Below, piece by piece: positions 1-59,928 of a stretch of 64,000 nucleotides of DNA. Each line of letters begins with the position of its first letter. Position 1 is the first letter of the stretch. The position numbers were made by a program, and so were the translations under genes. The notes under the pieces are model-generated. The model saw only the letters and a list, made by a program, of their open reading frames with translations, was not told where the DNA came from and did not search any database. Source of the DNA: Patescibacteria group bacterium (GTDB lineage Bacteria; Patescibacteriota; Minisyncoccia; UBA6257; Colwellbacteraceae); assembly GCA_023380475.1 (NCBI GenBank), contig JAMCRD010000006.1, positions 117,996-181,995 on the forward strand, written 5' to 3'.

Positions 1-79
1 CGATTGAAGCGCTGCGCTACGAGTAGTCTGATCTGAGCAATCGGCTGGCGGCCGTGATATATTATTCAGTAAGCTCTGC

Positions 80-1756: not shown

Positions 1757-1777
1757 TAGCGGCCGCAAGTCAGTGCT

Positions 1778-2401
1778 CTAGAATAGTTTTTCCTGTTTCA
1801 GATGTTTATCGGCGGCGGTTAGCTCGGCTGGCTTTTCAGCCAATAGATCGGCCAACTTACGGCGTACCGTGGGCAAAGTGCCGAACTTTTTACGTAGTTC
1901 TTCCAGAACTGCGGTTGATCTCAAGGCTGCCGCGGGGTGATATAGCGGAAATATTATCCAGTCGCCCTTCCTGAAGACTCTACCTTGATCACGCGATATC
2001 TTTGCGTCCGGCAGGAAAATATTCATTGAGAATCTCCCTAAGGGAACGATCAGTTTAGGATTGATAATGTCGATCTGCTTCTTGAGGTAAGGATAATAAG
2101 CTGTCACTTCCTCGGGGAGCGGATCGCGGTTCTCGGGTGGGCGGCGTTTAACGATGTTGGTTATGTAAACACTGCTGCGTTTCCAGTCTATCTCCTTAAG
2201 TAACTCATCCAACAGCTGTCCAGCTCGACCGACAAATGGCCGGCCTTGCTGGTTTTCATAAAAACCGGGCGCTTCTCCGATAAATATAACTTCCGCGTTG
2301 GGGTCACCTTCTCCGAATACCAAGTTGGATTCGATAAGCGGCAAAGATTTGTCGGCAGCGATCTCTCTTTTTAATTCTTCGAGGGCGGCAGCTTTGTTCA
2401 T
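1778..2401 (-). CDS. Uracil-DNA glycosylase, family 4-like (cysteine-free variant)
   Basis: Motif FIGEAPGFYENQQGRPFVGRAGQLL (the GEAPG...GRPFVGRAG signature of family 4/5 UDG); no Cys residues, so no Fe-S cluster. Confidence 0.75.
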   Translation of the reverse strand: MNKAAALEELKREIAADKSLPLIESNLVFGEGDPNAEVIFIGEAPGFYENQQGRPFVGRAGQLLDELLKEIDWKRSSVYITNIVKRRPPENRDPLPEEVTAYYPYLKKQIDIINPKLIVPLGRFSMNIFLPDAKISRDQGRVFRKGDWIIFPLYHPAAALRSTAVLEELRKKFGTLPTVRRKLADLLAEKPAELTAADKHLKQEKLF

Positions 2402-2823
2402 TGGTAGGATTATTTTACACCCAAAGTGCCTCGGGTTACGCGATGCAGCAAGTGCGCTATAATCTAATCATGATCGGCGTGCTCTATGTGGCTACACGCT
2501 TTTTGAATCGAATAGTCCAGTTTATCCGCGATTGGTATGTGGGCGGCTTTAATGCACTAGTCCATCGAGCCTTGCTTATCTTTGGCCGCCTGGACAGATT
2601 TTTGGCCCTTAGGGTTACCTTGCATCACATGTTTGAACCCCTCTATCAGGATCGATCAGTGCTCGGGCGCATTCTGGGTTTAATCTTCCGTAGCGTTCGG
2701 GTGGTTGTGGCTTTGCTTATCTACGGTGTCATTGCCCTCGTCTTTCTCGCGATATACGTCGCTTGGGCAGCCATACCGCTATTATTAATTTATTTCTTGT
2801 TTGCTGACTATGGAATCACCTAA
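2401..2823 (+). CDS. Hypothetical small membrane protein
   Basis: 140-aa ORF with 2-3 hydrophobic helices; overlaps the start of the downstream Clp ATPase gene by 23 nt; no recognisable motifs. Confidence 0.3.
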   Translation: MVGLFYTQSASGYAMQQVRYNLIMIGVLYVATRFLNRIVQFIRDWYVGGFNALVHRALLIFGRLDRFLALRVTLHHMFEPLYQDRSVLGRILGLIFRSVRVVVALLIYGVIALVFLAIYVAWAAIPLLLIYFLFADYGIT

Positions 2824-5308
2824 TTTTTATTTTGAAGACCCGAGGCTGAATATGTCCCTGCCCGCCAGGACGATCATTAACATCGTCATGTGGGTATGGA
2901 CGGTTGTGCTCGTTACGAGTACGGCCATATTCCTACTGTCCGGCGTTGCCTGGATGAGGGCGCTTGGCTTGCTGCTGGTGCTTTATCTGGCTGATCGTTT
3001 CATCCGCCGCAACCGTTCGAACAAGCCCCTGCGCAAGATACCCAAAGATGGGGATATAAACCTAGCAGACTACATGAGTCCGCAGGCGGTAAATTTGATG
3101 CTTTCTGCCTTTAGCCGAGCTCAGGTTTTCGGCGGCCACCCTTATCTGCATCTGGCCAAAGATCTGCTGGTAAGAAGCGAGGTGGACGAAGCGTTGCGCC
3201 GGCTGGATGTTTCCCGCGACGAACTGGGGGCAAAACTGGTCGAGCATCTGAATAAGAGTTTGCCAGTCAAATATAACCGCGAGCAGATAGCTAAATTGGC
3301 CAAGAAACTCACCTTAGCAGCAGCGCTCCAGGCCTCGAATGGGCAGACTGATGAGATAAATCCAGCCGACCTGTTTGCCGGCATATCGGCGGTGGGTGAG
3401 TTGGAAACAGCCAAAGTCTTCGACCTTTTCCAAATTGCCTCAGGCGATCTGGAAAAGGCTCTTATCTTTGGCCGCTTCAAATCCTCCCTGCGTTTTACCC
3501 GCCTACCCTCGAGCCTGGGAGGCTTTGCTAGGAGGGCCTATCGCACGAAGCACCGCTTTATGAACCGAGCTTGGACGGCCCGGCCCACGCCAGCCTTGGA
3601 TAGGGTCAGTTCTGATCTGACGGATATGGCGAGAGCCGCGAAGGTCGGTTTTATGATCGGGCACCACAAAGAATATGAAAGACTAGTCAATATCATTTCC
3701 CGCCCGGACAAGCCCAACGCGCTCTTGATCGGTGACCCAGGTGTCGGGAAAGCAACCGTAATCGACCATTTGGCGTACATGATCAATAGAGACGAAGTTC
3801 CACCGCCCTTGTTCGACAAGCGGTTGGTTGCTCTCGATATGAACGCCTTGCTGGCCGGAGCCGATCAAGGAGAAATTCAACGGCGGATCAAAGTTATCTT
3901 CAGTGAGATAGCGTCAGCCGGCAACATTATTTTGTACATACCGGATATACATAATCTCTCGCGCACTTCGCCTTCACGGGAGCTTTCGGCGGCCAATACC
4001 CTGCTGCCGCTCGTGGTTTCTAACGACTTCCCGACGATAGGCACGACTTACCCAAAGGAATACAAGCAGTTCATCGAGACAGACAGTGTTTTCGCCAGCT
4101 CTTTCCAGGAAATACAGATGGACGAGGTGAGTGAGGACGAGGCCGAGCGCATCATGGTCTACGACAGTGTGATTCTGGAAAAGATTTACAAGGTTAGGAT
4201 AACCTATGCTGCTATCAAGAACGCCGTGCAGCTGGCTAGAAGATACTTCCGCGAAAAACTTCTCCCTTCCTCGGCCGATGATCTGCTTAAAGAAGCTTTG
4301 ACAGAAGCCAATCGCAGCGGCGAGAAGTCGATCGGCAGCGATGATATAGCCCGCGTGGCGGAGAGGCGGGCTAGGGTGCCGATCCATAAGGCCGGTAATC
4401 TAGAGCGGGAGCAGCTGTTGCATCTCGAGGACATAATTCACGAGCAATTTATTGACCAGGAAGTCGCTGTTAAATCGGTGTCGCGGGCCCTACGCGAATA
4501 TCGCAGCGGCTTGGTGCGGAGAGGCGGTCCCATAAACTCATTCTTATTCGTCGGACCGACCGGGGTCGGTAAAACGGAGTTGTCCAAGATACTGGCCCGG
4601 GTTCAGTTCGGCTCAGAAAGTGCGATGATCCGCTTCGATATGTCCGAGTATCAGGATAAAGGTAGCGCCATGCGTTTGATTGGTTCGCCCGACGGCGCGG
4701 TAGCCGGCCTTTTGACCGACGCGGTCATCGAGCATCCTTACAGCTTGGTTTTGTTGGATGAATTTGAGAAAGCCAATCCGGACATTCTCAACTTGTTCCT
4801 GCAGGTTTTTGACGACGGGCGACTTACCGACAACTTGGGGCGGACGGTGAGTTTCGAGAACACGATGATCATCGCCACTTCCAACGCCCACTCCGAGTTT
4901 ATTAAAGACGAATTGGCCCAAGGCAAGAGCATGGAAGAAATAAGCAGCACCTTCAAGAGCAAACTGACCGACGTTTTCCACCCCGAGCTCTTAAACCGTA
5001 TGACAGTCATCGTCTTCCGTAACCTCGGTCCAGCAGATATAGCCAATATTGCCAAGTTTCAAATCGACGAACTGCGCAATACTCTCAAGAATGAGAAGGG
5101 TATAGAACTCAACGTGCCGACGGCGACCCTGACTAAGCTGGCAGAATGGGGTTACGATCCAGTTTTCGGAGCCAGGCCTCTCCGAGAGGTCATATCTGAG
5201 AAACTTCGCGGGCCTCTCTCAGAAATGATTCTGTCGACGGCCGTCGAAAGGGGAGCGGTGATAACAGCTGTGGTAGAGGGAGATAAAATCGGGCTAGATA
5301 TGAAATAG
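2801..5308 (+). CDS. Membrane-anchored Clp/Hsp100-family AAA+ ATPase (ClpC/ClpB-like, two nucleotide-binding domains)
   Basis: Two N-terminal TM helices, then Clp_N-like repeats. NBD1 Walker A is GDPGVGKAT and NBD2 Walker A is GPTGVGKTE. NBD2 Walker B is LVLLDEFEKA. C-terminal sensor-2 is GARPLRE. NBD1 Walker B reads ILYIPDIH, i.e. D but no catalytic E. Confidence 0.8.
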   Translation: MLTMESPNFYFEDPRLNMSLPARTIINIVMWVWTVVLVTSTAIFLLSGVAWMRALGLLLVLYLADRFIRRNRSNKPLRKIPKDGDINLADYMSPQAVNLMLSAFSRAQVFGGHPYLHLAKDLLVRSEVDEALRRLDVSRDELGAKLVEHLNKSLPVKYNREQIAKLAKKLTLAAALQASNGQTDEINPADLFAGISAVGELETAKVFDLFQIASGDLEKALIFGRFKSSLRFTRLPSSLGGFARRAYRTKHRFMNRAWTARPTPALDRVSSDLTDMARAAKVGFMIGHHKEYERLVNIISRPDKPNALLIGDPGVGKATVIDHLAYMINRDEVPPPLFDKRLVALDMNALLAGADQGEIQRRIKVIFSEIASAGNIILYIPDIHNLSRTSPSRELSAANTLLPLVVSNDFPTIGTTYPKEYKQFIETDSVFASSFQEIQMDEVSEDEAERIMVYDSVILEKIYKVRITYAAIKNAVQLARRYFREKLLPSSADDLLKEALTEANRSGEKSIGSDDIARVAERRARVPIHKAGNLEREQLLHLEDIIHEQFIDQEVAVKSVSRALREYRSGLVRRGGPINSFLFVGPTGVGKTELSKILARVQFGSESAMIRFDMSEYQDKGSAMRLIGSPDGAVAGLLTDAVIEHPYSLVLLDEFEKANPDILNLFLQVFDDGRLTDNLGRTVSFENTMIIATSNAHSEFIKDELAQGKSMEEISSTFKSKLTDVFHPELLNRMTVIVFRNLGPADIANIAKFQIDELRNTLKNEKGIELNVPTATLTKLAEWGYDPVFGARPLREVISEKLRGPLSEMILSTAVERGAVITAVVEGDKIGLDMK

Positions 5309-5316
5309 AGCGGGAA

Positions 5317-7047
5317 ATGAGGAATGAGGAGATCGCCAAAACGCTTGCGGCCATCGGAAGTTTCCTGGAGATGGACGAGGTGGCATTTAAGCCCAGGGCT
5401 TATGCTCGCGCTGCCGAGGCCATCTCCAATCTAGAGGAAGAAACATCGGAGATATATAAAAAAGGAGGTATAAAGGCGCTCGAGGAAATACCGGGAGTGG
5501 GTGCATCGATAGCTGAAAAAATTGAAGAGCTCTTAAAGACAGGCAAGCTGCAGTATTACGAGGATTTAAAGAAGAAGCATCCCATAAACGTGGCCGAGCT
5601 GTCGAGCATCGAGGGCCTCGGCCCGAAGACGATGCAGCTCTTATATAAGAAGCTGGGTGTAAAGAATTTGGCCGGGCTTGAGAAGGCCGTAAAAGACGGC
5701 AAGATTCGTAAGTTGCCCCGATTTGGGCAGAAATCGGAGGAGAAGATAGAAAAAGGTATTGAGGCTTACCACCGGCACTCCGGCCGCTTCCCCATCGGCG
5801 AAGTGGCGGGCCTAGCTGAATCGATCAAGGATATGCTCTGGAAAGTTCCTGGCGTATCCAGGGTAGATATCGCCGGATCGTTTAGGCGTCGTAAAGAAAC
5901 GGTTGGGGATCTGGACATGTTGGTTATATCAACGCGCCCCAAGGCGGTCATGGATGCGTTTATATCGCAGCCGGACGTGATCGAAGTAATCGCTCACGGC
6001 AATACCAAGTCTTCGGTGAGACTGAAGATCGGCATAGATGTCGATCTGCGTGTTGTTAATGCCGAGTCCTATGGGGCAGCACTGGCATACTTTACTGGTT
6101 CGAAACCGCACAATGTGGCCATGCGCCAGATGGCCCAAGATAAGGGGTGGAAACTTAACGAGTACGGTTTGTTCCGCAAGAGCGGGAAGGGGTGGATTGG
6201 TCTGGCCGGAAAGACGGAAGAGGAAATCTACGAAAAGCTCGGCTTGGAGTATGTACCGCCGGAGATGCGCGAAGACCTAGGTGAGCTGGATTTGGCGGCA
6301 GTGCACAAGCTGCCCCGCCTCATAGGCTACAAGGATCTGGTGGGCGACTTGCAGGTTCAATCCAACTGGACCGACGGCGCTAACTCGATCGAGGAAATGG
6401 CTCTGGCCGCTGAAAAAATGGGTTATAAGTATGTAGCTATAACCGATCATACCAAGCGGCTGGCTATGGCCCACGGCTTAGATGAAGCCGGGCTGGCGAA
6501 GCAGGGGGTAGAGATAGATCGAGTTAACAAGAAGTTGAAGGGTCGCATTAAAGTGCTGAAGGGGACGGAATGCGACGTTTTGAAAGATGGAACGTTGGAT
6601 ATATCCGACAAGACTCTGGCAAAGCTGGATATCGTCGGCGTTTCCATCCATTCCTACTTTGACTTGCCGCTTAAAGAACAGACAGCGCGACTCGAGAGAG
6701 CGATGCGCAACCCGAACGCCGATATAGTTTTTCATCCTACCTGCCGATTGATAAATAAACGCGAGCCAATCAGCATCGACATGGACAGAGTCATTAAAGT
6801 AGCCAAAGAGACGGGGATGGTTCTCGAGATAGACGGCATACCAGACAGACTGGACCTCAAGGACGAGTATATAAGAAAAGCTGTCGAGGTGGGGGTAAAA
6901 CTGTCGGTCGATTCCGACGCTCATGCTATCGCCCACTTGCCGTTTGCGAGCTACGGCTTGGCTCAAGCTCGCCGCGGCTGGGCCAAGCGCAGCGATATTG
7001 TGAATACTTGGCCGCTCGAGAGGATGAAGAAAATGTTAAAATCGTAA
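5317..7047 (+). CDS. polX: DNA polymerase X family protein with C-terminal PHP phosphoesterase domain
   Basis: N-terminal helix-hairpin-helix motifs (GVGASIAEKI, GLGPKTMQLL), Pol-beta-like nucleotidyltransferase core (GSFRRRKETVGDLDMLV), C-terminal PHP domain (ITDHT...HSYFD...DSDAH). Confidence 0.85.
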   Translation: MRNEEIAKTLAAIGSFLEMDEVAFKPRAYARAAEAISNLEEETSEIYKKGGIKALEEIPGVGASIAEKIEELLKTGKLQYYEDLKKKHPINVAELSSIEGLGPKTMQLLYKKLGVKNLAGLEKAVKDGKIRKLPRFGQKSEEKIEKGIEAYHRHSGRFPIGEVAGLAESIKDMLWKVPGVSRVDIAGSFRRRKETVGDLDMLVISTRPKAVMDAFISQPDVIEVIAHGNTKSSVRLKIGIDVDLRVVNAESYGAALAYFTGSKPHNVAMRQMAQDKGWKLNEYGLFRKSGKGWIGLAGKTEEEIYEKLGLEYVPPEMREDLGELDLAAVHKLPRLIGYKDLVGDLQVQSNWTDGANSIEEMALAAEKMGYKYVAITDHTKRLAMAHGLDEAGLAKQGVEIDRVNKKLKGRIKVLKGTECDVLKDGTLDISDKTLAKLDIVGVSIHSYFDLPLKEQTARLERAMRNPNADIVFHPTCRLINKREPISIDMDRVIKVAKETGMVLEIDGIPDRLDLKDEYIRKAVEVGVKLSVDSDAHAIAHLPFASYGLAQARRGWAKRSDIVNTWPLERMKKMLKS

Positions 7048-7049
7048 CT

Positions 7050-7559
7050 ATGCAGCAAGCGGTTAGTCATGAAGTATCAGCGGGTATAGTGGTCTACCGT
7101 CGCACCAACGAAGGCCCCAAATTTTTACTGCTCTACCACGGCGGCCGCTACTGGAACTTCCCAAAAGGACATATCGAGCCGCTAAAGACCGAAGGCGGAA
7201 ATACCACTCCGCTTATGGAAACGAGTTTCAGGGCCGCCGTACGCGAGACGTGTGAGGAAACCGGCCTCAAGGAGAGCGATCTTAGGTTCAGGCGCGGCTT
7301 TAAAGCTTACGAGCGCTACCTTTTTAACAAGGGCAAAACACGGGTATCTAAAACGGTAATTTTCTATCTAGCCGAGACCAGAGAAAGGCAGGTAAAGATA
7401 TCAGAGGAACACGAAGGGTTTGGCTGGTTTAAATATCGGGACGCCCTGCGGCTGTTAAATTCCTACCGCGAAAACGAGGCGGTGATAAAACGCGCTCACA
7501 ATTTTATATCCCATCCTAGGCCGGTGCCTAGCTCTTCAGAGACGCAACGATCTTCTTGA
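7050..7559 (+). CDS. NUDIX hydrolase
   Basis: Nudix box GHIEPLKTEGGNTTPLMETSFRAAVRETCEETGL (Gx5Ex7REUxEExGU). The track ORF begins at 7008 inside polX, so the start is placed at the first ATG after the polX stop. Confidence 0.8.
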   Translation: MQQAVSHEVSAGIVVYRRTNEGPKFLLLYHGGRYWNFPKGHIEPLKTEGGNTTPLMETSFRAAVRETCEETGLKESDLRFRRGFKAYERYLFNKGKTRVSKTVIFYLAETRERQVKISEEHEGFGWFKYRDALRLLNSYRENEAVIKRAHNFISHPRPVPSSSETQRSS

Positions 7560-7875
7560 AGACAGCTGGTTCGTTTTCAGCTATATTGGCCAGCACCTTG
7601 CGGTCAAGCTTTATATTATTGGCCTTGAGGGTATGGATTAGTTCGCTGTAGCGGACACCTTCACCCCGGGCGGCGGCGTTTATCTTGGCCTGCCATGCCG
7701 TACGGTTAACCCTCTTCTCTTCTTTACGTCCCCGGAAAGAGTGTGACCAAGCGTGGAGCAGAGCTTCCTTAGCGGCACGCTCTTTGGATTTACGGCTCCA
7801 CCTGAAACCCTTGGTGTATTTCAAGATCTTGCGGCGCTTCTTAGCTGCTATTTTCCCTCTTTTTACTCGTGCCAT
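7528..7875 (-). CDS. rplT: 50S ribosomal protein L20
   Basis: MARVKRGKIAAKKRRKILKYTKGFRWSRKS... canonical L20 sequence; last gene of the infC-rpmI-rplT operon. Confidence 0.95.
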   Translation of the reverse strand: MARVKRGKIAAKKRRKILKYTKGFRWSRKSKERAAKEALLHAWSHSFRGRKEEKRVNRTAWQAKINAAARGEGVRYSELIHTLKANNIKLDRKVLANIAENEPAVFKKIVASLKS

Positions 7876-8058
7876 TTATCCTAGATATTTCTTGGCGATT
7901 TTCTTGGAATCTGTAGAGATAAGGATTTTGTTTTTCCGCTTGTGGCGTATCCGGCCCTCGTTCTTGTTCGCCCGCGAATGTCCCAGTCCCATCGGCCGTC
8001 GTAGAATCTTGCCATTCTTGGTTACGCGGAATCGATCTGTTATAGCCCGTTTGGTCAT
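7876..8058 (-). CDS. rpmI: 50S ribosomal protein L35
   Basis: 60-aa basic protein MTKRAITDRFRVTKNGKILRRPMGLGHSRANK..., positioned between infC and rplT. Confidence 0.9.
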   Translation of the reverse strand: MTKRAITDRFRVTKNGKILRRPMGLGHSRANKNEGRIRHKRKNKILISTDSKKIAKKYLG

Positions 8059-8118
8059 ATCAGCAACTTTTAGTATCTAAGTACAGTAGCGATGATACCG
8101 TATAATAGATTTTTTGTC

Positions 8119-8174
8119 GAGACACCTCTCGTCTGGGAAAACACCTCTATTGCGAGAGGTGTTTTTGTTTTTTG
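8119..8174 (-). promoter_or_regulatory. Structured infC-rpmI intergenic leader (candidate L20 translational operator and/or attenuator)
   Basis: On the minus strand the hairpin CACCUCUCGCAAUAGAGGUG is followed by UUUUCCC and then by a second CGAGAGGUG copy that can alternatively pair with the first arm (pseudoknot or alternative-helix potential). Confidence 0.35.
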
Positions 8175-8187
8175 TAGACCAGCTGTT

Positions 8188-8697
8188 TTACTTACTCAAT
8201 TGTATAAGCAGGCCGTGCGCTCCTCTCTGGGCACTTTGAGTGACTTTATAGGGAGTAGAAATAAGTTTCAGGAAGGCGTCTAACTTCTCCCTAGCAAACC
8301 CTTCCATGGATTTCTCTCTGCCTCGCATGGTCAATTGGATTTCTATCTTGTGACCCTCGTTTAGGAATTCGTCTATCTTCTTAGCCTTACGGGCCATATC
8401 ATTCACAGCTTCGCGGACGCTAACCTGAACCTGCTTCATCTCCAGGGTTCTGGTGGCTGCCTTTTGTTTTTTGAGCTCTTTAGACTTCTCGTAGCGGAAT
8501 TTATCAAAGTTAACTACCCTCGCCACTGGCGGGGTAGCCTGAGCGGTGATTAAAACCAAGTCCAGCCCCTTCTCTTTGGCTATGCGTATGGCTTCATCAC
8601 GTTCAAGAACGCCAAGGTTGTTACCGGATTCGTCGATCACCCTGAGTTCCTTAGCTCCTATCTGATTGTTGAGGACGAAGTTTTCTATGGTTTCAAT
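8188..8697 (-). CDS. infC: Translation initiation factor IF-3
   Basis: VIDESGNNLGVLERDEAIRIAKEKGLDLVLI... plus conserved C-terminal domain. The track ORF starts at GTG 8640, but the in-frame upstream extension IETIENFVLNNQIGAKELR matches the conserved IF3 N-terminus. The likely non-AUG (AUU/AUA) start is near 8697, exact position uncertain. Confidence 0.85.
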   Translation of the reverse strand: METIENFVLNNQIGAKELRVIDESGNNLGVLERDEAIRIAKEKGLDLVLITAQATPPVARVVNFDKFRYEKSKELKKQKAATRTLEMKQVQVSVREAVNDMARKAKKIDEFLNEGHKIEIQLTMRGREKSMEGFAREKLDAFLKLISTPYKVTQSAQRGAHGLLIQLSK

Positions 8698-8766
8698 ATA
8701 TATGATGCCCGGCCCTAGTGCAACATCTCACAGCGAGGCTGAGCAACCCGTCGGCCGGACGGGCGT

Positions 8767-22708: not shown

Positions 22709-22949
22709 ACGGTGGTCGACCTCATTTTTTAGAGACGCCCTATTTGTTTTGAATAAGATGGTCGGCAGGCGTGTATTAGTTGGTGAAAGGCCACAATTAG
22801 CCTTACCAACTAAACATGAAAATAATCTACCATATACGCTGCCCTACCAGAAGCCAACCTACGACTAGCATAGATTGGTGATGTCGGTTCAACCTATGTA
22901 AAGTTTGCGTACATAAAACCGCGGCTAGGCCGCGGTTGTTATGTAAGTG

Positions 22950-23287
22950 TGGAGGCGGAGGGATTGAACCCTCGTCCAGGAAGTTGCTCAAAGGCGCTCT
23001 ACAAGCTTAGTCCTCTTGCGAAGACGTGGTTGCTCCCGGTGGTTTAACCTGCCTTATTGGGAACCTGTTGGGGCAGGCGATTCCGCTGTATGACACCGGT
23101 TTGACCTCTAGCGGAAATCGAGGACCGATGCCCGACTCATGTGGAGCCGAGGCCAGCATTAAGCCAAAGCCAATGCTGGGGCTGCAACTTTATAGTTGGC
23201 AGTTCTTGGTTTGCGACGGGTTTTACGAGCATGTCGCAGCTCGGCTTGCTACCTTTAAGGGTGCTCCCTGTCGAAGCTTGCGCCCCC
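22950..23287 (-). ncRNA. ssrA: tmRNA (SsrA)
   Basis: Minus-strand 5' end GGGGGCGCAAGC pairs with 3' end ...GGUUCAAUCCCUCCGCCUCC-A (tRNA-like T-arm and acceptor). Internal reading frame GCC AAC UAU AAA GUU GCA GCC CCA GCA UUG GCU UUG GCU UAA encodes the tag (A)NYKVAAPALALA. Located immediately downstream of smpB. Confidence 0.85.
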
Positions 23288-23725
23288 ATTACGTATCTCT
23301 TTCTGAAATTCTTGCTTTTTAAGAAACTCTCGCTTGTCAGCCTTATTTCTCGGGCGAACCAGGCCTATCTCTAGTTTGACTATGCCCAGTTTGCCGCGGG
23401 CAGTATAGATTCTGAGCGGGATAGCAGTCAACCCCTTCTCTTTTATCCGTCCTAACAGGAGGTTTATCTCTTTGCGGTTTAACAGTAGTCTGCGATCACG
23501 CTGCGGTTTATAGCTGGCAGGGGTATTCTTGGGCTGATAAGGTGGGACGTCAGCTCCAATAAGCCAGGCCTCGCCACCCCTCAGGGCGACATGGGCGCCG
23601 GCGATGTTAACCCGGCCCGACTTTATGGCTTTCACCTCGTGGCCGTGCAATTCGATACCCGCCTCAAACTTTTCCAACACGGCGTAATCGTGATAAGCCC
23701 TGCGATTGGCTGCCAATTCACTCAT
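23255..23725 (-). CDS. smpB: SsrA-binding protein SmpB
   Basis: MSELAANRRAYHDYAVLEKFEAGIELHGHEVKAIKSGRVNIAGAHVAL... canonical SmpB sequence; 3' end overlaps the tmRNA 5' end by ~33 nt. Confidence 0.9.
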   Translation of the reverse strand: MSELAANRRAYHDYAVLEKFEAGIELHGHEVKAIKSGRVNIAGAHVALRGGEAWLIGADVPPYQPKNTPASYKPQRDRRLLLNRKEINLLLGRIKEKGLTAIPLRIYTARGKLGIVKLEIGLVRPRNKADKREFLKKQEFQKEIRNGGASFDREHP

Positions 23726-23794: not shown

Positions 23795-25510
23795 ATGTTT
23801 GAGGTTTTGAGGGATCTTATAGCGCAGGCCTCCGGGACGGATAGTTTTCAGCTGGGAGTGCCGGAGTTTGAAAAACTGGGTCATTTTATGACCAATGTCG
23901 CTTTTGCGGTTGGGAATAGAGACAAAATAGGACCGATGGAGGCCGCCCGCAGGCTGGAGAAAGAGATTCTAACCAGAAGCCCCAAGAACTTTATAGACCG
24001 CATCGACGTGGCCGCCCCTGGTTTTATAAACTTCTGGCTTACCCCCCAGGCTATCCAAACAGAGTTAAGTTTCATTTTTAAAGACAAGCAGTACGGTCTG
24101 GGCAAAAGTTGGAAAGGCAAGCGGGTGATGATCGAGTTTACCGACCCCAACCCATTCAAACTTTTTCATATCGGCCACCTGATGAGCAATACTATCGGCG
24201 AATCGTTCGCGCGGTTATTCGAGGCTGCCGGCGCCAAAGTTATCCGCGCCAACTACCAAGGCGACGTCGGTCTCCATGTGGCTAAGGCCATCTGGGGGAT
24301 GCGGCAGATGATCGAGCGCGGGGACAAAATGCCCAGTGCAGGCGACAGTCTGGTAACCAAAGTTGATTTCCTCGGCCGAGCCTACGCGCTGGGGGCTTCG
24401 GTCTACGAGGACCAAAGCGGTTCAGCGCGGCCGGAAGCCAAAGAAGAAATATTAGCGATAAACGAAAAAGTGTATTCGCGTCGCGACAAGTCGATCAATC
24501 AACTTTATGATATTGGTCGCAAGTGGAGCCTGGCTTACTTCGAGACGGTGTACAAGAAATTAGGTACGAAGTTCAACCACTACTTCTTTGAAAGCAAAGT
24601 TGGCCGGGATGGTTTGAAGTTGGTCATGGCTCACCAAGATATTTTTGAGGAGAGCCAAGGCGCCATAGTCTTCCCCGGAGAAAAGTACGGCTTGCATACG
24701 CGGGTGTTCGTTAACTCCAAAGGGCTGCCGACCTATGAAGCCAAAGAGCTTGGTCTTAACAAGAGGAAGTTCGAGCTGTACAAGCTCGATTTGTCGGCAA
24801 TAGTCACTGCCAACGAGATCAATGATTACTTCAAAGTACTGCTTAAGGTGATGAGCCTAATAATGCCGGAGGTGGCTCGAAAGACGCGCCATGTGTCACA
24901 CGGCTTTTTGCGCTTGCCCGGCGGCAAGATGTCTTCCAGGACGGGCAGTGTGATAACTGCCGAGTCGCTGATCGAGCAGGTCAAAGAGAAAATACGGGAG
25001 CGGGTTGGCCGGAACGGGGATATAAGCGGAAAAGACAAAGAAGTCATAACTGAAGCTATCGCCATTGGCGCTATAAAGTGTTCTATTTTAAGACAGAGCC
25101 CGGGTCAGGACATAATTTTTGATTTTGAGAGATCTTTATCGCTTGAAGGAGATTCGGGGCCGTACCTGCAATACGCTTTTGTCAGAGCGCTGAATATTCT
25201 TAATAAAGCGGGGAGGATCAGCAAGGTAAACTACGAACTCCTTGATAGCGGGGAAGAGCTGGCTCTGATTATGAAACTTATTGAATTTCCGACGGTTATT
25301 AAGACATGCATTGATTCTTTAGCTTCTAACGGACTTGTCACGTATCTATACGACCTTGCCAAGACGATGAATCGTTTCTATGATGCGAAAAACGTCTTGA
25401 AGGCGGAAGATAAGGTTCGCCGCGCAAGATTGGCGCTGGTCTTTGCAGCCGCCAGGACGCTTAAGACCGGTCTTGGCCTGTTGGGTATAAACACTGTGGA
25501 ACATATGTGA
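23795..25510 (+). CDS. argS: Arginine--tRNA ligase
   Basis: HIGH motif (FHIGHLMSNTIG), class I catalytic core, C-terminal DALR anticodon-binding domain. Confidence 0.9.
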   Translation: MFEVLRDLIAQASGTDSFQLGVPEFEKLGHFMTNVAFAVGNRDKIGPMEAARRLEKEILTRSPKNFIDRIDVAAPGFINFWLTPQAIQTELSFIFKDKQYGLGKSWKGKRVMIEFTDPNPFKLFHIGHLMSNTIGESFARLFEAAGAKVIRANYQGDVGLHVAKAIWGMRQMIERGDKMPSAGDSLVTKVDFLGRAYALGASVYEDQSGSARPEAKEEILAINEKVYSRRDKSINQLYDIGRKWSLAYFETVYKKLGTKFNHYFFESKVGRDGLKLVMAHQDIFEESQGAIVFPGEKYGLHTRVFVNSKGLPTYEAKELGLNKRKFELYKLDLSAIVTANEINDYFKVLLKVMSLIMPEVARKTRHVSHGFLRLPGGKMSSRTGSVITAESLIEQVKEKIRERVGRNGDISGKDKEVITEAIAIGAIKCSILRQSPGQDIIFDFERSLSLEGDSGPYLQYAFVRALNILNKAGRISKVNYELLDSGEELALIMKLIEFPTVIKTCIDSLASNGLVTYLYDLAKTMNRFYDAKNVLKAEDKVRRARLALVFAAARTLKTGLGLLGINTVEHM

Positions 25511-28500
25511 TTGATGGCGGAAGAGAATAAACAATTTAAATTGCCGGAAGGAGAGGAGCGCATCCTAAAGTTCTGGGACGAGCGCAAGATTTTCGAAAAG
25601 AGTCTTGAACAGACCCGCCGCAGCAAACCGTTTGCGTTTTATGACGGGCCGCCTTTTGCAACTGGCCTGCCCCACTACGGACATTTACTAGCCTCAACGG
25701 TGAAGGATGTTTTCGGCCGCTACCAGACGATGCGGGGGCGATACGTCCGCCGGCGTTGGGGCTGGGATTGCCACGGCTTGCCCATCGAGGAGGTGGTTGA
25801 AAGAAAGCTGGGCATCTCGGGCAAGAAGCAGATTGAGCAGATCGGCATAAAAAAGTTCAACGAGACCTGCCGCAGCATGGTTTTGGAATATGCCGGTGAG
25901 TGGAAGGAAACAATAAGACGCCTGGGCCGATGGGTCGAGTTCGACGATTCCTATAAAACCATGGATTCAACCTACATGGAGTCGGTCTGGTGGGCTTTCA
26001 AGGAAATATATAAGAAGGGTTTGGTCTACGAAGGTCGGAAGGTGTTGCTGTACTGCCCGCGCTGCGAGACGCCAGTCTCCAACTTCGAGGTAGCAATGGA
26101 CAACAGTTATAAGGATGTCACTGAAGAATCGGTAACGGTTAAGTTCAAAGTTAAGAACCCCGGTAAGATCGGGCTTGGCAACAAGGATTTGTATATCCTG
26201 GCTTGGACGACGACGCCTTGGACATTGCCTGGCAATGTGGCTTTGGCGGTCGGTTCGGAAATAAGGTACAGGATTGTTAGAAGCGGCAACGAATATCTGA
26301 TTGCTGCTGTTGACCGGCTTAAGGATATAGGCTTGGTCGGCGAAAGTGTCGAGTTCGGCCAGGAGCTCACGGGAGCAGACCTAGTTGGACTAGGATACGT
26401 GCCGTTGTTCAACGTTCCGGAAGTTAAGAATGAAAAGTCATTTAGGGTTTATCCGGCATCTTTTGTAACAACCACGGATGGTACAGGTATAGTCCATACG
26501 GCCGTGGTCTACGGTGAAGACGATTACAACCTTGGGGTGCAGGTCGGTTTGCCGGTGGTGCCCATGCTGGATGAGAAAGGAACGTTCAACGACAAGGCAC
26601 CGGAGTTTCTGCGGGGGCAATATTTTAAAAAGGCAGACGGGTTGGTGATAGCTGACCTGGAAAAACGCAACTTGGTTTTCAAGAAAGAGAGTTACACTCA
26701 CTCCTACCCGCACTGCTGGCGGTGCGGCAATATGCTGTTTTACAACGCGATACCGGCCTGGTTCTTCAACATCCAGAAGATAAAGCCGAAGTTGATCAAG
26801 TCCAATAGCAAGGAAATAAATTGGTTCCCGGAGCATTTGAAACACGGCCGCTATGAAAAAAGCATCGAGGCGGCTCCTGACTGGAACATCTCGCGCAACC
26901 GTTACTGGGGCAATCCGATACCGGCATGGAAATGCGATAAATGCGGCCAGACGGAAATCATCGGCAGTATCGACGAATTGTCAGCCCGAGTCGGCAAATC
27001 TAAAAACGAATACTGGATTATGCGCCACGGCGAGGCGGAGACCAATGTCTTTGACGTGACCGATTCAGGCCAGGGCAAATTCCATCTTACGCCTTTGGGC
27101 GAGCGGCAGGCCAAAGAAGCGATAGATAAGTTCGGGAAGGAGTTGTCCAGGCAAGGCAAGAGGATTGATTTGATAATCGCTTCCGACATCCTGCGCACCA
27201 AGGAAACGGCTAAGATCGACGATAAGGAACTCGGCGGGGAGTCGCTCACGTATGACGAGCGCTTGCGCGAGATAAACCTGGGGCCGATACTAAACGGCTG
27301 CCACGACGAGAAATACCACCAGATATTCCCGACCTACCAGGAAAAATTCGAGAAACGGCCGCAAGGCGGGGAATCACTGCGCGATTTGCGTAAGCGGCTG
27401 TGGGAATTTTTGGCTGATTGCGAAACTAAGTACGAGGGCAAGAACATATTGATTGTTACCCACGAATATCCGGCTTGGATGCTGGCTGTAGCCGCCGGAG
27501 CGATGGATGAACGTCAAGCTATAGTGGAGAAGGAAAAATACGGCAAGGATTACATAAATTTTGCTGAGATACGGAAGCTGGGGCTAAGGATAGCGCCCCG
27601 CAACGATACCGGCGAGGTTGACCTGCACCGTCCTTACATCGATGCCGTTACGTTCGCCTGTCGGTCGTGCGGCGGCAAAATGCGGCGCACAACGGAAATA
27701 TTCGACTCTTGGGTGGAAGCAGGATCAATGCCCTTCGCGGAGTTTCACTATCCTTTTGATAACAAGAAAGTGTTCGAAGCTCGTTTCCCGGGACAGTTTG
27801 TCGCTGAGTACATTGCTCAGACCAGGGCTTGGTTTTATGTCATGCATGTCATATCGCTGATTTTGTTCGGGGAAGCACCGTTCGAGAATGTAGTCACAAC
27901 CGGCACGATTTTAGCCGAGGACGGCTCCAAGATGAGCAAGTCCAAAGGCAACTACCCCGACCCCAAGATTGTGCTTGCCAGGTACGGGGCGGATAGCCTG
28001 CGTTTCTACCTTATGAACTCGGTAGTTATGCAGGCCGACAATCTTGATTTCTCGGAGAAGGGAGTGGAGGGTATATACCGCAAGGTGGAACTCCTGATAG
28101 CCAATGTTTACAAATTCTTCGCGACCTACGCCAGCACGAGCAATGCCACTGCGACCGGCGACGAGGCAGCCAGATTGCTGGATTTATGGATCAAGGTCCG
28201 AACGGAGGAGTTGGTGACCGAGGTAACCAAATATCTCGATGTCTACGATACGGTTCGGGCCACGCGCGCCGTCCAGGAATACGTTGACGACTTGTCCACT
28301 TGGTATCTGCGACGCAGCCGTAAGCGTGATGATCGAGCGTTTTTCAACACCTTGCACGATAGCCTCTTAACTCTTAGCAAGGTAATCGCGCCTTTCATGC
28401 CGTTCTTGGCAGATGACTTGTACGGGAAGATCAAGTCGCATGATTTGGCCGACAGCAGAGCTGAGTCGGTGCATTTAACTGCTTGGCCCAAAGCCAGCTT

Positions 28501-29035
28501 CTCCATGCGGGAGTCGAAGCGCCGGGAACTAACAAGCAAGATGGCCGAGGTTCGCCGTTTGGCCAGTTTAGGACTAGCTGGTCGCGAGAGGGTTAAGATT
28601 AAGATCCGTCAGCCGCTCTCTAAGATGTCGGTTAAAGGTAAAGTGACACTCAATAGCGATATGTTGAATATTCTGAAAGACGAGGTGAATGTTAAGGAAG
28701 TTGTGTTTGACCCCGACTTGGTTTTGCCTGAGGATCAGGAAATACAACTTGATACCAACCTAACCGAGGAGCTTAAGGAGGAAGGCGTGCTGCGTGAGAT
28801 GACGAGGTTGATCCAAGGATTAAGACGCGAGGCGGGCCTTGTACCAACCGACACCATAAATTTGCACGTTCAGTGCTCATCCGCAATGCAGCTGGCGCTC
28901 GAGCAGCATCTGGCCGATTTCAGAGACGACATCGGCGCCAGAGAGGTGCTTTTTGGGAAATCCGACAAGTTTACTGCCGAGAAAAGTACTCAAATCGACG
29001 GCGAGCCGATTTGGGTAGGGATAGCTAAGCTTTAG
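25511..29035 (+). CDS. ileS: Isoleucine--tRNA ligase with an inserted histidine-phosphatase (PGAM-family) domain
   Basis: HYGH (PPFATGLPHYGHLL), CP1 editing domain, NISRNRYWGNPIP, KMSKSKGN. Between KCDKCGQTEIIGS and LHRPYIDAV lies an ~200-aa block with IMRHGEAETN ... ILIVTHEYPAW, the two-His signature of the histidine phosphatase superfamily. Confidence 0.95.
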   Translation: MMAEENKQFKLPEGEERILKFWDERKIFEKSLEQTRRSKPFAFYDGPPFATGLPHYGHLLASTVKDVFGRYQTMRGRYVRRRWGWDCHGLPIEEVVERKLGISGKKQIEQIGIKKFNETCRSMVLEYAGEWKETIRRLGRWVEFDDSYKTMDSTYMESVWWAFKEIYKKGLVYEGRKVLLYCPRCETPVSNFEVAMDNSYKDVTEESVTVKFKVKNPGKIGLGNKDLYILAWTTTPWTLPGNVALAVGSEIRYRIVRSGNEYLIAAVDRLKDIGLVGESVEFGQELTGADLVGLGYVPLFNVPEVKNEKSFRVYPASFVTTTDGTGIVHTAVVYGEDDYNLGVQVGLPVVPMLDEKGTFNDKAPEFLRGQYFKKADGLVIADLEKRNLVFKKESYTHSYPHCWRCGNMLFYNAIPAWFFNIQKIKPKLIKSNSKEINWFPEHLKHGRYEKSIEAAPDWNISRNRYWGNPIPAWKCDKCGQTEIIGSIDELSARVGKSKNEYWIMRHGEAETNVFDVTDSGQGKFHLTPLGERQAKEAIDKFGKELSRQGKRIDLIIASDILRTKETAKIDDKELGGESLTYDERLREINLGPILNGCHDEKYHQIFPTYQEKFEKRPQGGESLRDLRKRLWEFLADCETKYEGKNILIVTHEYPAWMLAVAAGAMDERQAIVEKEKYGKDYINFAEIRKLGLRIAPRNDTGEVDLHRPYIDAVTFACRSCGGKMRRTTEIFDSWVEAGSMPFAEFHYPFDNKKVFEARFPGQFVAEYIAQTRAWFYVMHVISLILFGEAPFENVVTTGTILAEDGSKMSKSKGNYPDPKIVLARYGADSLRFYLMNSVVMQADNLDFSEKGVEGIYRKVELLIANVYKFFATYASTSNATATGDEAARLLDLWIKVRTEELVTEVTKYLDVYDTVRATRAVQEYVDDLSTWYLRRSRKRDDRAFFNTLHDSLLTLSKVIAPFMPFLADDLYGKIKSHDLADSRAESVHLTAWPKASFSMRESKRRELTSKMAEVRRLASLGLAGRERVKIKIRQPLSKMSVKGKVTLNSDMLNILKDEVNVKEVVFDPDLVLPEDQEIQLDTNLTEELKEEGVLREMTRLIQGLRREAGLVPTDTINLHVQCSSAMQLALEQHLADFRDDIGAREVLFGKSDKFTAEKSTQIDGEPIWVGIAKL

Positions 29036-32534: not shown

Positions 32535-32560
32535 TTTTATTTGATTTTATTGTTTATTAG

Positions 32561-32643
32561 TGCCGAGGGCGGGACTTGAACCCGCAAGCCTTGAAGGCAC
32601 ACGGCCCTGAACCGTGCATGTTTGCCAGTTTCATCACCTCGGC
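32561..32643 (-). tRNA. tRNA-Leu (anticodon CAG), class II with long variable arm
   Basis: Minus-strand GCCGAGG acceptor / CCUCGGC-A, anticodon loop UUCAGGG (CAG), variable-arm hairpin GCCUUCAAGGC, T-arm GCGGGUUCAAGUCCCGC. Confidence 0.85.
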
Positions 32644-33287
32644 GATGTAACAAACTCTTTTGCTATAAAGAACTTTCTTTCTAAACGCGGTACGTTTGGT
32701 TTGTAGTAAATGCGATTCAGCAGGGCGATCGAGTCTTGTTTGCTGAATGTTAACCTGAATGTTACCGGATCATTTCTAATAAAGCCCCTTTTACCAGTTG
32801 CACTCGTAATCTTTCTCCTAAGCCACAAGATGTGCGGCAGTGAAGCAGACATAAAAGTGGTGTAAAGGCGTAGACTTTTTGGATAAACCGGATCGTTATA
32901 TTTCATGATACAACCATCTCCATCCAAATGTCCTCTGAGAAAATCAAAGAAGAGATCATTGGGTATCTTTAATGCCCCAAGACGTTTTGATTTATTGGGC
33001 ATTAAACCAACATCGAGAAGCCATCGGTAAAGTGTGACATTGCCAAATTGGATGTGAAACGAACTTAATCTGTTAGTGTAACTACTCCGCTTTCTAACTA
33101 TTCCGTTTTTTAAATTAAGGCACTTTTTAAAAGTCTCCATTTGATCCTTATCATTCGAAGTAAAGTCGAAGTGACGGCCATCCGGAGACAAACAGCCGTC
33201 TGTGGTGATAAGTCCCACGGCGTATGCAATCTGGGGTGACCAAGCAATTTCTTTTTGTCTAGGATACATTGACTTACTTGCGTCCAT
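32634..33287 (-). CDS. Free-standing LAGLIDADG homing endonuclease (two-motif, single-chain type)
   Basis: AYAVGLITTDGCL (motif 1) and FLRGHLDGDGCI (motif 2); wedged between pgi and tRNA-Leu, overlapping the tRNA 5' end by ~10 nt. Confidence 0.75.
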   Translation of the reverse strand: MDASKSMYPRQKEIAWSPQIAYAVGLITTDGCLSPDGRHFDFTSNDKDQMETFKKCLNLKNGIVRKRSSYTNRLSSFHIQFGNVTLYRWLLDVGLMPNKSKRLGALKIPNDLFFDFLRGHLDGDGCIMKYNDPVYPKSLRLYTTFMSASLPHILWLRRKITSATGKRGFIRNDPVTFRLTFSKQDSIALLNRIYYKPNVPRLERKFFIAKEFVTSPR

Positions 33288-57424: not shown

Positions 57425-57584
57425 TGTCTCTGCTCAACGATGGTGACAGATCGTTTACAAGTGAACAAATAAGTAACCAAATTGGTAAAGGTTCAAAACA
57501 ATAGATAATAAATAGAGAATTTTTTAGTTGTCCCAAAGCACTTTACTTTCGACCGGCCCAGCATGGGTGGTCGAAAGTTTTTTT

Positions 57585-59928
<2,344 letters not shown>

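Follow-up and report, generated by a model that had tools for sequence, protein, structure and literature searches.

Organization of the ileS locus

The window, i.e., the whole stretch of 64,000 nucleotides analysed here, is from a bacterium of the candidate phyla radiation and contains one gene of isoleucyl-tRNA synthetase (IleRS), and no second ileS was found in it. The genes and features of the locus are collected in Table 1, with the IleRS domains named as in PMC7191050 and PMC7955072. A product of 1174 aa had been proposed by an earlier reading of the sequence alone (the sequence-only reading), and this length was borne out by the ORF that begins at TTG. In the NCBI model, MCL4405509.1, the next codon (ATG 25514) is taken as the start, which gives 1173 aa.

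Table 1. Genes, domains, and motifs of the ileS locus, in positions of the window
Feature	Position	Strand	Remark
smpB	23255..23725	-	in conserved smpB-argS-(hp)-ileS synteny block
argS	23795..25510	+	directly abutting ileS
ileS, IleRS with nested phosphatase	25511..29035	+	1174 aa from TTG 25511
IleRS N-terminal part, aa 1-497	25511..27001	+	through first half of CP3
First Rossmann half with HYGH	HYGH 25673-25684	+	
CP core, then CP1 editing domain with GTGIVH	GTGIVH 26480-26497	+	
CP2, then CP2-3 linker SRNRYWG	within 25511..27001	+	
CP3 zinc knuckle, first CxxC (C475, C478)	26933..26944	+	
Inserted histidine phosphatase domain, aa 498-702	27002..27616	+	~205 aa
RHG motif: Arg505, nucleophile His506, Gly507	27023..27031	+	
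Arg562, second phosphate-binding arginine	27194..27196	+	
Glu587, presumed general acid	27269..27271	+	LREI motif
His651, second catalytic histidine	27461..27463	+	ILIVTHE motif
IleRS C-terminal part, aa 703-1174	27617..29035	+	1ILE alignment, Pfam
DLHRPYID	27620-27643	+	
CP3 second CxxC (717/720)	27659-27670	+	
Second Rossmann half with KMSKS	KMSKS 27929-27943	+	
Anticodon-binding domain and DUF5915	within 27617..29035	+	Pfam

In profile search with the whole ORF product, the TIGR00392 (ileS) model was matched with 830.7 bits (cutoff 621.4), the insertion notwithstanding. The enzyme was assigned to type 2 IleRS, i.e., the Thermus/eukaryote/archaea-like class, and is collinear with the Thermus thermophilus IleRS (1ILE) over the whole synthetase (E=2.6e-212). 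The HYGH (55-58) and KMSKS (807-811) motifs were invariant in 121 full-length sequences. The CP1 editing-domain region was aligned to 1WK8/1UE0, and its GTGIVH motif is present. The HIGH-type motif, KMSKS, the CP1 editing domain, and both CxxC pairs of the zinc-containing CP3 are likewise found in 1ILE (PMC7191050). The models of mupirocin-resistant MupA/MupB (NF000257 and NF000258) scored 720 and 723 bits, below their cutoff of 1900.

Inserted histidine phosphatase domain

In Pfam search of the whole protein, the tRNA-synt_1 match was split in two by a match to PF00300 (His_Phos_1) at aa 502-664. The match was above the gathering threshold (E=1.7e-27, 96.8 bits against a cutoff of 21.7), and the insert alone scored 101.2 bits against the same cutoff. 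The in-frame fusion of synthetase and phosphatase that the sequence-only reading had proposed is borne out by this nested match. In the alignment to 1ILE, residues 10-497 of the query corresponded to residues 9-483, and residues 703-1026 to residues 488-817. The domain is therefore a clean insertion of ~205 aa, which is absent from 1ILE and replaces a 4-residue loop there. About 200 extra residues at 26990-27600 (aa 494-697) had been reported by the sequence-only reading, which is essentially right and was refined to 27002-27616. The motifs that it quoted, i.e., RHG at 505-507, VTHEY with His651, and the flanking CxxC pairs, are present as written.

The insertion point is the loop of the CP3 zinc knuckle, between the two CxxC pairs (475/478 and 717/720). 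The sequence-only reading had also given ~60-90 residues as normal for IleRS at this position. This number holds for the whole CP3 region, but not for the exact insertion point, where canonical IleRS, including type 2, has merely a loop of 4-10 residues in place of the 205-aa enzyme domain. The CP3 loop of class Ia synthetases is thus shown to be able to hold a whole enzyme. The insert is a complete branch-1 histidine phosphatase of ~200 aa, PhoE/PspA/CobC-like, and its content equals one whole free-standing family member and a return segment of ~10 aa.

The full-length AF2 model had a pLDDT of 86.5 and a pTM of 0.80; pLDDT was about 86-96 in the insert and at least 88 in each junction block. 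The insert-only AF2 model (pLDDT 92.6) showed an alpha/beta phosphoglycerate-mutase-like fold. Its best structural matches were GpgP, PspA, HFP, PhoE, and CobC (TM about 0.7, Foldseek probability 1.0), and the matches to dPGM/BPGM had higher rmsd than these phosphatases. All NCBIfam equivalog models scored below their cutoffs, i.e., CobC TIGR03162 (57-62 against 162.9), PspA NF045917 (39-43 against 350), SixA TIGR00249 (25 against 74.5), and the mutases NF038349 (68-72 against 225), NF002901 (44-49 against 261), and NF002339 (29-34 against 316). Because no equivalog cutoff was reached, the substrate specificity of known relatives is not transferable to the insert.

The GC and GC3 of the insert (0.524 and 0.659) agree well with the values elsewhere in the gene (0.514 and 0.637), and a recent foreign origin of the insert was rejected on this ground. 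The insert starts at ...GKS/KNEYW and ends at ...NDTGE/VDLHR. As the sequence-only reading had stated for both junctions, there is no Cys or Ser at the N-terminus and no terminal His-Asn; Thr is also missing at the N-junction. By Pfam, no Hint or endonuclease domain was found in the protein. The insert is not an intein, because these junction residues are missing and its closest relatives are ordinary free-standing genes.

Catalytic residues and their conservation

Arg505, His506, Arg562, and His651 were invariant in the 121 full-length sequences, and the Arg and His of RHG were also invariant in about 135 diverse sequences. The same four residues were near-invariant in 151 representatives with 33-57% identity, and ranked above the zinc cysteines in conservation. 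At the position of Glu587, Glu or Asp was found in 121/121 full-length and 144/148 diverse sequences. The claim that both catalytic His are intact can therefore be extended to the rest of the catalytic set, i.e., Arg505, Arg562, and Glu587.

Evolution is faster in the insert than in the synthetase core, with mean pairwise identities of 46% and 66%, respectively. It has eight invariant columns, four of which are catalytic. The specificity 'cap' (aa ~592-620) contains zero invariant residues, which is compatible with promiscuity of the enzyme or with substrate binding through other elements. Judged from the alignments, the active sites of both synthetase and phosphatase retain their signature residues, the catalytic set of the insert seems to be under purifying selection, and the phosphatase is apparently active.

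Distribution of the fusion

The insert was found in all of the best 120 full-length homologues (120/120), and about 150 clusters (50% identity) spanned the whole junction-insert-junction region. It was present in at least 164 GTDB species. Essentially all of these belong to Patescibacteria, and the fusion is a trait that runs through this lineage. The sequence pattern of the insert was derived from an alignment of 11 inserts; the alignment of 24 sequences was too diverse. The same in-frame architecture was present in hundreds of independent NCBI, JGI, ENA, and Logan assemblies. For this reason the insert is not an assembly chimera, and a chimera or frameshift at the junctions, which the sequence-only reading had allowed for, is ruled out. 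The fusion proteins are already deposited in NCBI and UniProt (e.g., A0A1F6BT94) under generic names. Since NCBI names them only 'class I tRNA ligase family protein', annotation gives no hint of the architecture.

One copy (locus L001) is fragmented with frameshifts, and its contig is a single error-prone assembly. The other collected loci showed scattered frameshift breaks only. Several representatives of ~750 aa start exactly 49 aa before the query, and a split ileS gene was considered for them. This was rejected, as P0177, the one representative that could be checked, is a truncation on a 2.5-kb contig.

Free-standing homologues and linkage to ileS

A new observation here is that related bacteria encode the phosphatase in a gene of its own, immediately upstream of an ileS that lacks the insert. 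The closest free-standing homologues were in this position in 6/6 look-ups, with gaps of -19 to +68 nt between the two genes, which often overlap. The free-standing gene is flanked by argS and ileS in related genomes, and it is still beside ileS where argS has moved away. The free-standing homologues retain the same catalytic residues.

Of 76 informative metagenome loci, the phosphatase was upstream of ileS in 46 (43 adjacent and 3 with an extra ORF), inserted in 26, and unlinked in 4, two of which are probably contigs ending too early. About 95% of the family members are physically tied to ileS in these two topologies. This phosphatase family of Patescibacteria is thus almost always linked to IleRS, either as the upstream gene or as the CP3 insert. 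Part of the adjacency could be due to inherited synteny within related Paceibacteria-type lineages. At L158 and L167 the phosphatase is present and unlinked to ileS. At L175 and L177-L179 there is no phosphatase at the ileS locus, which means that the IleRS enzymes of these lineages work without it.

The median pI was 9.8 for the free-standing forms and 6.8 for the inserted forms. As the inserted domain lacks a basic charge, it is less likely to bind RNA strongly on its own. The basic charge of the free-standing forms is common to many small proteins from AT-rich genomes, and charge is not discriminating for RNA binding.

Apparent switching between fused and separate states

In the neighbour-joining tree of IleRS, the fused and unfused states were interleaved, and unfused clades nest inside fused ones with 88-96% bootstrap. 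The loci L174 and L175 showed 96.6-98.4% DNA identity except for one replaced segment, i.e., CP3 plus phosphatase, with breakpoints in YWGxPLPIW and LHRPFID. The difference between these two may be an assembly chimera, because this evidence of a recent switch is one 2.5-kb metagenome contig. The neighbour-joining tree of the phosphatase domain (185 columns) has long branches and is poorly resolved, and its topology and direction are not fixed. In the co-inheritance comparison, phosphatase identity was weakly correlated with IleRS identity (Spearman 0.16-0.20). By these sequence comparisons, the module is accessory and appears to be exchanged. The configuration seems to change by recombination at the conserved motifs flanking CP3. 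Strains may thus be able to exchange a part of an essential translation gene in a cassette-like manner.

Comparison with known systems

The fold of the insert is shared by small branch-1 phosphatases, i.e., PhoE/YhfR (1EBB, 1H2E), PspA (4IJ5), GpgP Rv2419c (4QIH, 6S2Q), CobC (6E4B, 6NRU), and HFP (9MMH). PhoE, PspA, GpgP, CobC, and HFP match the insert at TM of about 0.65-0.75 and have the RHG...R...E...H set and the size of about 200 aa in common with it. However, their identity to the insert is only 18-25%, and all are metabolic enzymes that stand alone and are not linked to any tRNA synthetase.

The INS domain of ProRS and YbaK, as well as the AlaRS editing domain and AlaX, are cases in which a cis domain of some lineages is a separate protein in others. 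The IleRS phosphatase, as proposed here, shows the same pattern of a module that is either inserted or free-standing. The substrates of the ProRS and AlaRS modules are aminoacyl esters, which they hydrolyse, and their folds are unrelated to that of the IleRS insert, a predicted phosphomonoesterase. Most of the accessory catalytic modules so far known in aminoacyl-tRNA synthetases are domains for aminoacyl-ester editing.

An IleRS with a second, unrelated enzyme domain inside is also represented by NF040702 (isoleucine--tRNA ligase, N-acetyltransferase domain-containing). Segment-wise hmmscan placed its extra segment in the CP1 region (model positions 274-494) and showed a CP3 loop of the usual length. 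The window protein scored 277 bits with this model against a cutoff of 1999, and the domain type differs. The literature on IleRS with GNAT concerned the natural-product enzymes SbzA/SbzC, and nothing describing NF040702 was found. In the bifunctional RNase H/acid phosphatase (Rv2228c type, NF005567), a CobC-like phosphatase is joined to a nucleic-acid-processing enzyme. The insert matched this model at E of about 2e-19 to 3e-18, but with a score of 66-70, below the cutoff of 326. That protein is an end-to-end fusion with another partner enzyme, whereas the window protein is a nested insertion.

No paper on an architecture of IleRS with histidine phosphatase or phosphoglycerate mutase was found, in line with the sequence-only reading, which knew of no description; the search covered few subscription journals, and absence from it is not proof.

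Possible role of the phosphatase

The phosphatase has the appearance of a partner enzyme of IleRS that is exchangeable and has not been described before. We consider it fairly probable that it is an accessory phosphomonoesterase dedicated to IleRS. It would act as a cis domain in the window protein and elsewhere as a trans partner, which probably docks near CP3. A conserved phosphomonoesterase tied to IleRS across much of Patescibacteria points to a phosphorylated species in or around isoleucylation, outside the textbook reaction.

An independent housekeeping or metabolic phosphatase, e.g., a broad-specificity sugar-phosphate, phosphoserine, or nucleotide phosphatase, is a somewhat unlikely explanation. 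Such an enzyme would be co-expressed with or hitch-hiking in ileS with no mechanistic coupling to aminoacylation, and fusion would ensure that a tiny genome both expresses it and inherits it together with ileS. The nearest relatives that have been characterised are phosphatases of small molecules, the cap is not conserved, the inserted domain is near neutral in charge, and the gene is missing at the locus or unlinked in some lineages, all of which agree with this explanation. However, it leaves the tie of about 95% of the family to one particular gene in two topologies, and the persistence beside ileS when argS drifts away, without a reason. Insertion inside the catalytic domain of an essential enzyme is also a costly route to co-expression, and the junctions are predicted in the model to be rigid, not linker-like.

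The leucine-specific domain of LeuRS is an idiosyncratic non-enzymatic insertion in a class Ia catalytic domain, and such insertions are common in this class. A catalytically silent expansion of CP3, e.g., an extra tRNA- or protein-binding surface, could be imagined on this model. It is very unlikely, as all five catalytic residues are (near-)invariant across more than 270 sequences with identities as low as about 33%, although the insert diverges elsewhere, and the free-standing homologues keep them too. A glycolytic enzyme, i.e., a cofactor-dependent phosphoglycerate mutase fused to IleRS, has hardly any likelihood. Its basis is that the best NCBIfam match by E-value was the archaeal dPGM NF038349 (E about 1e-19 to 5e-20), but the scores of all mutase equivalogs are far below cutoff, the domain is compact (about 190 aa), and phosphatases are the best structural matches. 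It is next to impossible that the insert is an artefact, whether an assembly chimera or a frameshift, or that it is a selfish intein-like element, given the many independent assemblies, the host-like composition, and the lack of intein junction residues and of an endonuclease domain.

For the dedicated accessory phosphomonoesterase, a mechanism can be proposed from that of the family. His506 would attack the terminal phosphoryl group and form a phospho-histidine intermediate. Arg505, Arg562, and His651 would hold the phosphate, and Glu587 would protonate the leaving group. Speculatively, the substrate may be a phosphorylated species that otherwise blocks isoleucylation. The favoured candidates, equally speculative, would be the CCA end of tRNA-Ile blocked by a 2'/3'-phosphate, or else a nucleotide or inhibitor that is phosphorylated and occupies the CCA/adenylate pocket. 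In yeast IleRS, the CP2-3 linker lines the tRNA CCA pocket (PMC7955072). CP3 directly follows this linker.

In a more specific form of this reading, the phosphatase would be a 'repair or immunity' module that is dedicated to IleRS and can pass from strain to strain, either in a CP3 cassette or in an hp-ileS pair. Its task would be to take a blocking phosphate off the 2'/3' end of tRNA-Ile or off a lodged inhibitor. The end phosphate could arise, e.g., after toxin or nuclease damage, and the inhibitor would be in the CCA/adenylate pocket. We regard this form as doubtful and put it forward tentatively. If true, synthetase-associated enzymes would gain a new functional class that is different from aminoacyl-ester editing. 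The three natural states of the phosphatase, i.e., absent, in trans, and in cis, make a ready-made system for comparative and biochemical tests.

Insertion Site in the IleRS Gene

The protein of ileS is identical to MCL4405509.1 of NCBI, which was modelled from the ATG at 25514, i.e., one codon later, with 1173 aa. In the Pfam search, tRNA-synt_1 was split into two pieces flanking His_Phos_1 at aa 502-664 (E=1.7e-27), and Anticodon_1 and DUF5915 were also matched. The score against the NCBIfam model TIGR00392 (ileS) was 830.7 bits (cutoff 621.4), so the protein is an isoleucyl-tRNA synthetase (IleRS), though interrupted. On T. thermophilus IleRS (1ILE), aa 10-497 aligned to 9-483 and aa 703-1026 to 488-817, which indicates a clean insertion of approximately 205 aa in place of a 4-residue loop. 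The split domain, the His_Phos_1 match and this alignment confirm the in-frame phosphatase insert claimed in the sequence-only reading.

The insertion point lies between the CxxC pairs C475/C478 and C717/C720. This region is the zinc-containing CP3 subdomain in the published nomenclature (PMC7191050). It is directly preceded by the CP2-3 linker (...SRNRYWG), which lines the reveromycin/tRNA-CCA pocket in yeast IleRS (PMC7955072). The GC and GC3 of the insert were those of the remaining ileS sequence. The genes are tightly packed; the argS stop TGA (25508-25510) abuts the ileS TTG/ATG start (25511-25516), and the 3' ends of ileS and the convergent trpS share 4 nt (29032-29035).

Features of the window and of homologous loci, with coordinates on the respective sequence
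Sequence	Feature	Position	Strand	Description
Window	tmRNA gene	22947-23287	-	tag peptide ANYKVAAPALALA
Window	smpB	23255-23725	-	
Window	ileS	25511..29035	+	ORF, TTG start, 1174 aa
Window	phosphatase insert	27002-27616	+	aa 498-702, ~205 aa, 1ILE alignment
Window	tRNA-Leu(CAG)	32560-32643	-	
Window	217-aa ORF	32634-33287	-	weak LAGLIDADG_3 match, E=7.8e-6
Window	16S rRNA gene	57579-59060		full-length, bacterial
Window	group I catalytic intron	59523-59875		Rfam RF00028, 75.9 bits
Window	ORF	60617-61297		beyond group I intron
Window	ORF	61350-63077		beyond group I intron
L001	fused ileS	5178-8758		at least 4 ORFs
L082	RVT_1 ORF	2664-3668		334 aa
L083	RVT_1 ORF	75-1079		334 aa
L084	RVT_1 ORF	1015-2019		334 aa
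L086	unfused ileS	1935-4880		ORFs of 402 and 566 aa
L095	Glu/Lys-rich ORF	1811-2095		
L097	Glu/Lys-rich ORF	5164-6138		
L106	Glu/Lys-rich ORF	4584-5297		

Distribution of the Fused Architecture

PF00300 was found inside IleRS in all of the 120 best full-length homologues (54-100% identity), whose source names included Minisyncoccia, Paceibacteria, Jorgensen-, Lipton-, Doudna-, and Saccharibacteria. By exhaustive HMMER scan of 50%-identity cluster representatives with aa 470-740 as query, 118 representatives were hits at E<=1e-30, and approximately 150 covered junction, insert, and junction at 33-57% identity. The fused architecture is encoded by at least 164 GTDB species representatives, essentially all named as Patescibacteria-type. 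The ortholog survey suggested earlier thus recovered the same insert, and its presence in these homologues and species rules out an artefact.

Only one fused locus lacked a Patescibacteria-like or generic name, i.e., L009 (QYPD01000003.1), an 8.5-kb contig of a 'Spirochaetia bacterium' MAG, which was probably mis-binned. In L001, a 270-kb ENA contig ('contig_21914'), the breaks in the syntenic fused ileS fall at positions unrelated to one another, as expected of frameshift errors. Such breakage accounts for several short 'PF00133+PF00300' proteins in the databases.

Both parts are already known, i.e., type 2 IleRS and branch-1 histidine phosphatases. The sequence-only reading knew of no description of this architecture. 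No description of the combination was found in the literature searched, but fused proteins already sit unremarked in NCBI and UniProt, e.g., A0A1F6BT94. The nearest conceptual analogues are the editing modules of aminoacyl-tRNA synthetases (INS/YbaK; AlaRS editing domain/AlaX), which are likewise inserted or free-standing, although they differ in chemistry and fold. NF040702 of NCBIfam (IleRS with a GNAT domain) also hosts another enzyme, but its extra segment is in the CP1 region, not CP3.

Fold and Catalytic Residues of the Insert

The insert alone matched PF00300 with 101 bits, a check proposed in the sequence-only reading. The nearest solved structures by sequence were PhoE/YhfR, PspA, and CobC. 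The AF2 model of the insert was very confident (pLDDT 92.6, pTM 0.89), and its top structural matches were the compact phosphatases GpgP Rv2419c, PspA, HFP, PhoE, and CobC (TM ~0.7), whereas mutases matched less well. The full-length model reached pLDDT 86.5 and pTM 0.80, with pLDDT of at least 86 across the insert and its two junction blocks, which suggests a lobe fixed rigidly in place rather than tethered.

The insert scored below the NCBIfam equivalog cutoffs of dPGM, GpmB, CobC, PspA, and SixA, so homology gives no substrate for it. In membership tests of the window protein and insert, dPGM, CobC, PspA, SixA, MupA/B, and intein were all negative, the last in agreement with the lack of intein junction features noted before.

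Arg505, His506, Arg562, and His651 were invariant among 121 full-length sequences, and position 587 was Glu in 116 and Asp in 5; both catalytic His are thus intact, as first read. Among 151 diverse representatives, the counts were 136/136 for Arg505, 135/135 for His506, 145/147 for Arg562, 150/151 for His651, and 144/148 for Glu or Asp at 587, and these residues were conserved above the flanking zinc cysteines. The insert has diverged faster than the core of the synthetase (mean pairwise identity 46% vs 66%), and of the eight columns invariant in it, four hold the catalytic Arg/His/Arg/His. This pattern favours retained phosphatase chemistry and disfavours a silent structural domain. Judged by these residues and the models, the insert is apparently a complete, folded, and active histidine phosphatase. 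Its specificity cap contained no invariant residues.

Free-Standing Phosphatase Genes Beside ileS

The nearest free-standing relatives (~180-210 aa) showed 35-43% identity over the whole domain. All six that were looked up lay directly 5' of an insert-less ileS (938-980 aa), with the usual order argS, phosphatase gene, ileS and phosphatase-ileS gaps of -19 to +68 nt. At one of these loci, L089, two other genes separate argS, yet the 4-nt overlap with ileS is kept. At the insertion point, the paired IleRS proteins carry the 8-residue loop of canonical enzymes.

With the free-standing family as seed, a systematic metagenome scan gave 80 loci, 76 of them informative. In 43, the phosphatase was directly upstream of ileS (within 150 nt, many overlapping); in 3, it was upstream but separated from ileS by an additional ORF; in 26, it was inserted in IleRS; and in 4, it had no IleRS nearby. 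Two of the last four look like extra-ORF cases on contigs ending too early; when these are discounted, a single truly unlinked lineage is left (L158/L167). Approximately 95% of the family is physically joined to one gene, ileS, in two topologies, which makes a Rosetta-stone-type case for functional partnership. The proposed synthetase-phosphatase fusion is supported, and the upstream arrangement extends it. The free-standing forms were much more basic (median pI 9.8 vs 6.8 for inserted forms), which would match, as weak evidence, a need for extra affinity when untethered.

The ORF between phosphatase gene and ileS in L106, L097, and L095 is Glu/Lys-rich and begins MPEKFGDENLEPQQESEK. In one lineage (L082, L083, L084), a reverse-transcriptase ORF lies just 5' of the AA_kinase-argS-phosphatase-ileS block. 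In the unfused L086 (GCA_964490095.1), ileS has an in-frame stop exactly at the CP3 loop, the position of the insert in other lineages. A sequencing error, a pseudogene, or a true split of the gene at this loop may explain it.

Apparent Exchange of the Phosphatase Module

In L177 and L178/L179, the smpB-argS-ileS-recO synteny was kept without any phosphatase at the locus. In a bootstrapped neighbour-joining IleRS tree (874 core columns), one divergent clade of 16 loci (L085, L096, L102, L103, and relatives; bootstrap 100%, branch length 0.31) was all unfused, with the phosphatase gene still directly upstream and altered CP3 motifs, e.g., SPHRPWID vs DLHRPYID. The remaining clade held 60 fused and 20 unfused members, the unfused groups nested among the fused with support. 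The unfused L089 was sister of the window's clade (92%), the fused L017/L046 were sister of an 11-member unfused clade (96%), and another unfused clade had six members (88%). The phosphatase-domain tree was poorly resolved.

The fused IleRS P0177 (contig L174) offers one direct case. It is 95%, 86%, 77%, and 75% identical to unfused relatives, whereas identity to its nearest fused relatives is only ~65%. L174 and L175 share 98.4% DNA identity upstream and 96.6% downstream of a segment where L174 has 690 nt (CP3 first half and phosphatase) and L175 has 78 nt. Identity ends right after the conserved ...YWGxPLPIW and returns within LHRPFID. The phosphatase of P0177 shares no more than 52-57% identity with the fused relatives in the set, which makes the donor a distant one. 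On this single 2.5-kb metagenome contig, the segment looks like a cassette acquired by homologous recombination. The module is accessory and appears to undergo exchange.

Proposed Function

By signature residues, the window polypeptide has two intact active sites, and the genomic coupling to ileS, in cis or in trans, is tight. We infer that the phosphatase serves IleRS as a dedicated accessory enzyme; when separately encoded, it would probably dock near CP3. The main rival, an unrelated housekeeping phosphatase merely co-expressed with ileS, is less likely, though quite plausible. In its patchy, exchangeable distribution, the module resembles accessories for repair or immunity more than it does core metabolism.

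By the family mechanism, His506 would attack a terminal phosphoryl group bound by Arg505, Arg562, and His651, and Glu587 would protonate the leaving group. The lack of invariant cap residues is compatible with a promiscuous enzyme, or with a substrate that IleRS or the tRNA holds in position. In the favoured, speculative reading, the phosphatase may strip a phosphate that blocks isoleucylation; candidate substrates would be a tRNA-Ile end phosphorylated at 2'/3', or a phosphorylated nucleotide or inhibitor within the CCA/adenylate pocket. Across much of a major bacterial radiation, an essential synthetase would have a conserved second catalytic activity within or beside it. With absent, trans, and cis states all occurring in nature, the question can be tested directly.

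Other Features of the Window

The tmRNA gene is directly 3' of smpB, whose annotated 3' end it overlaps. The group I intron starts ~460 nt 3' of the 16S rRNA gene, presumably within the 23S rRNA gene, and the two ORFs beyond it might be intron- or insertion-encoded. The LAGLIDADG_3-like ORF abuts and overlaps tRNA-Leu(CAG), and the neighbours of the pair are the gene for RNase J on one side and one resembling phosphoglucose isomerase on the other.
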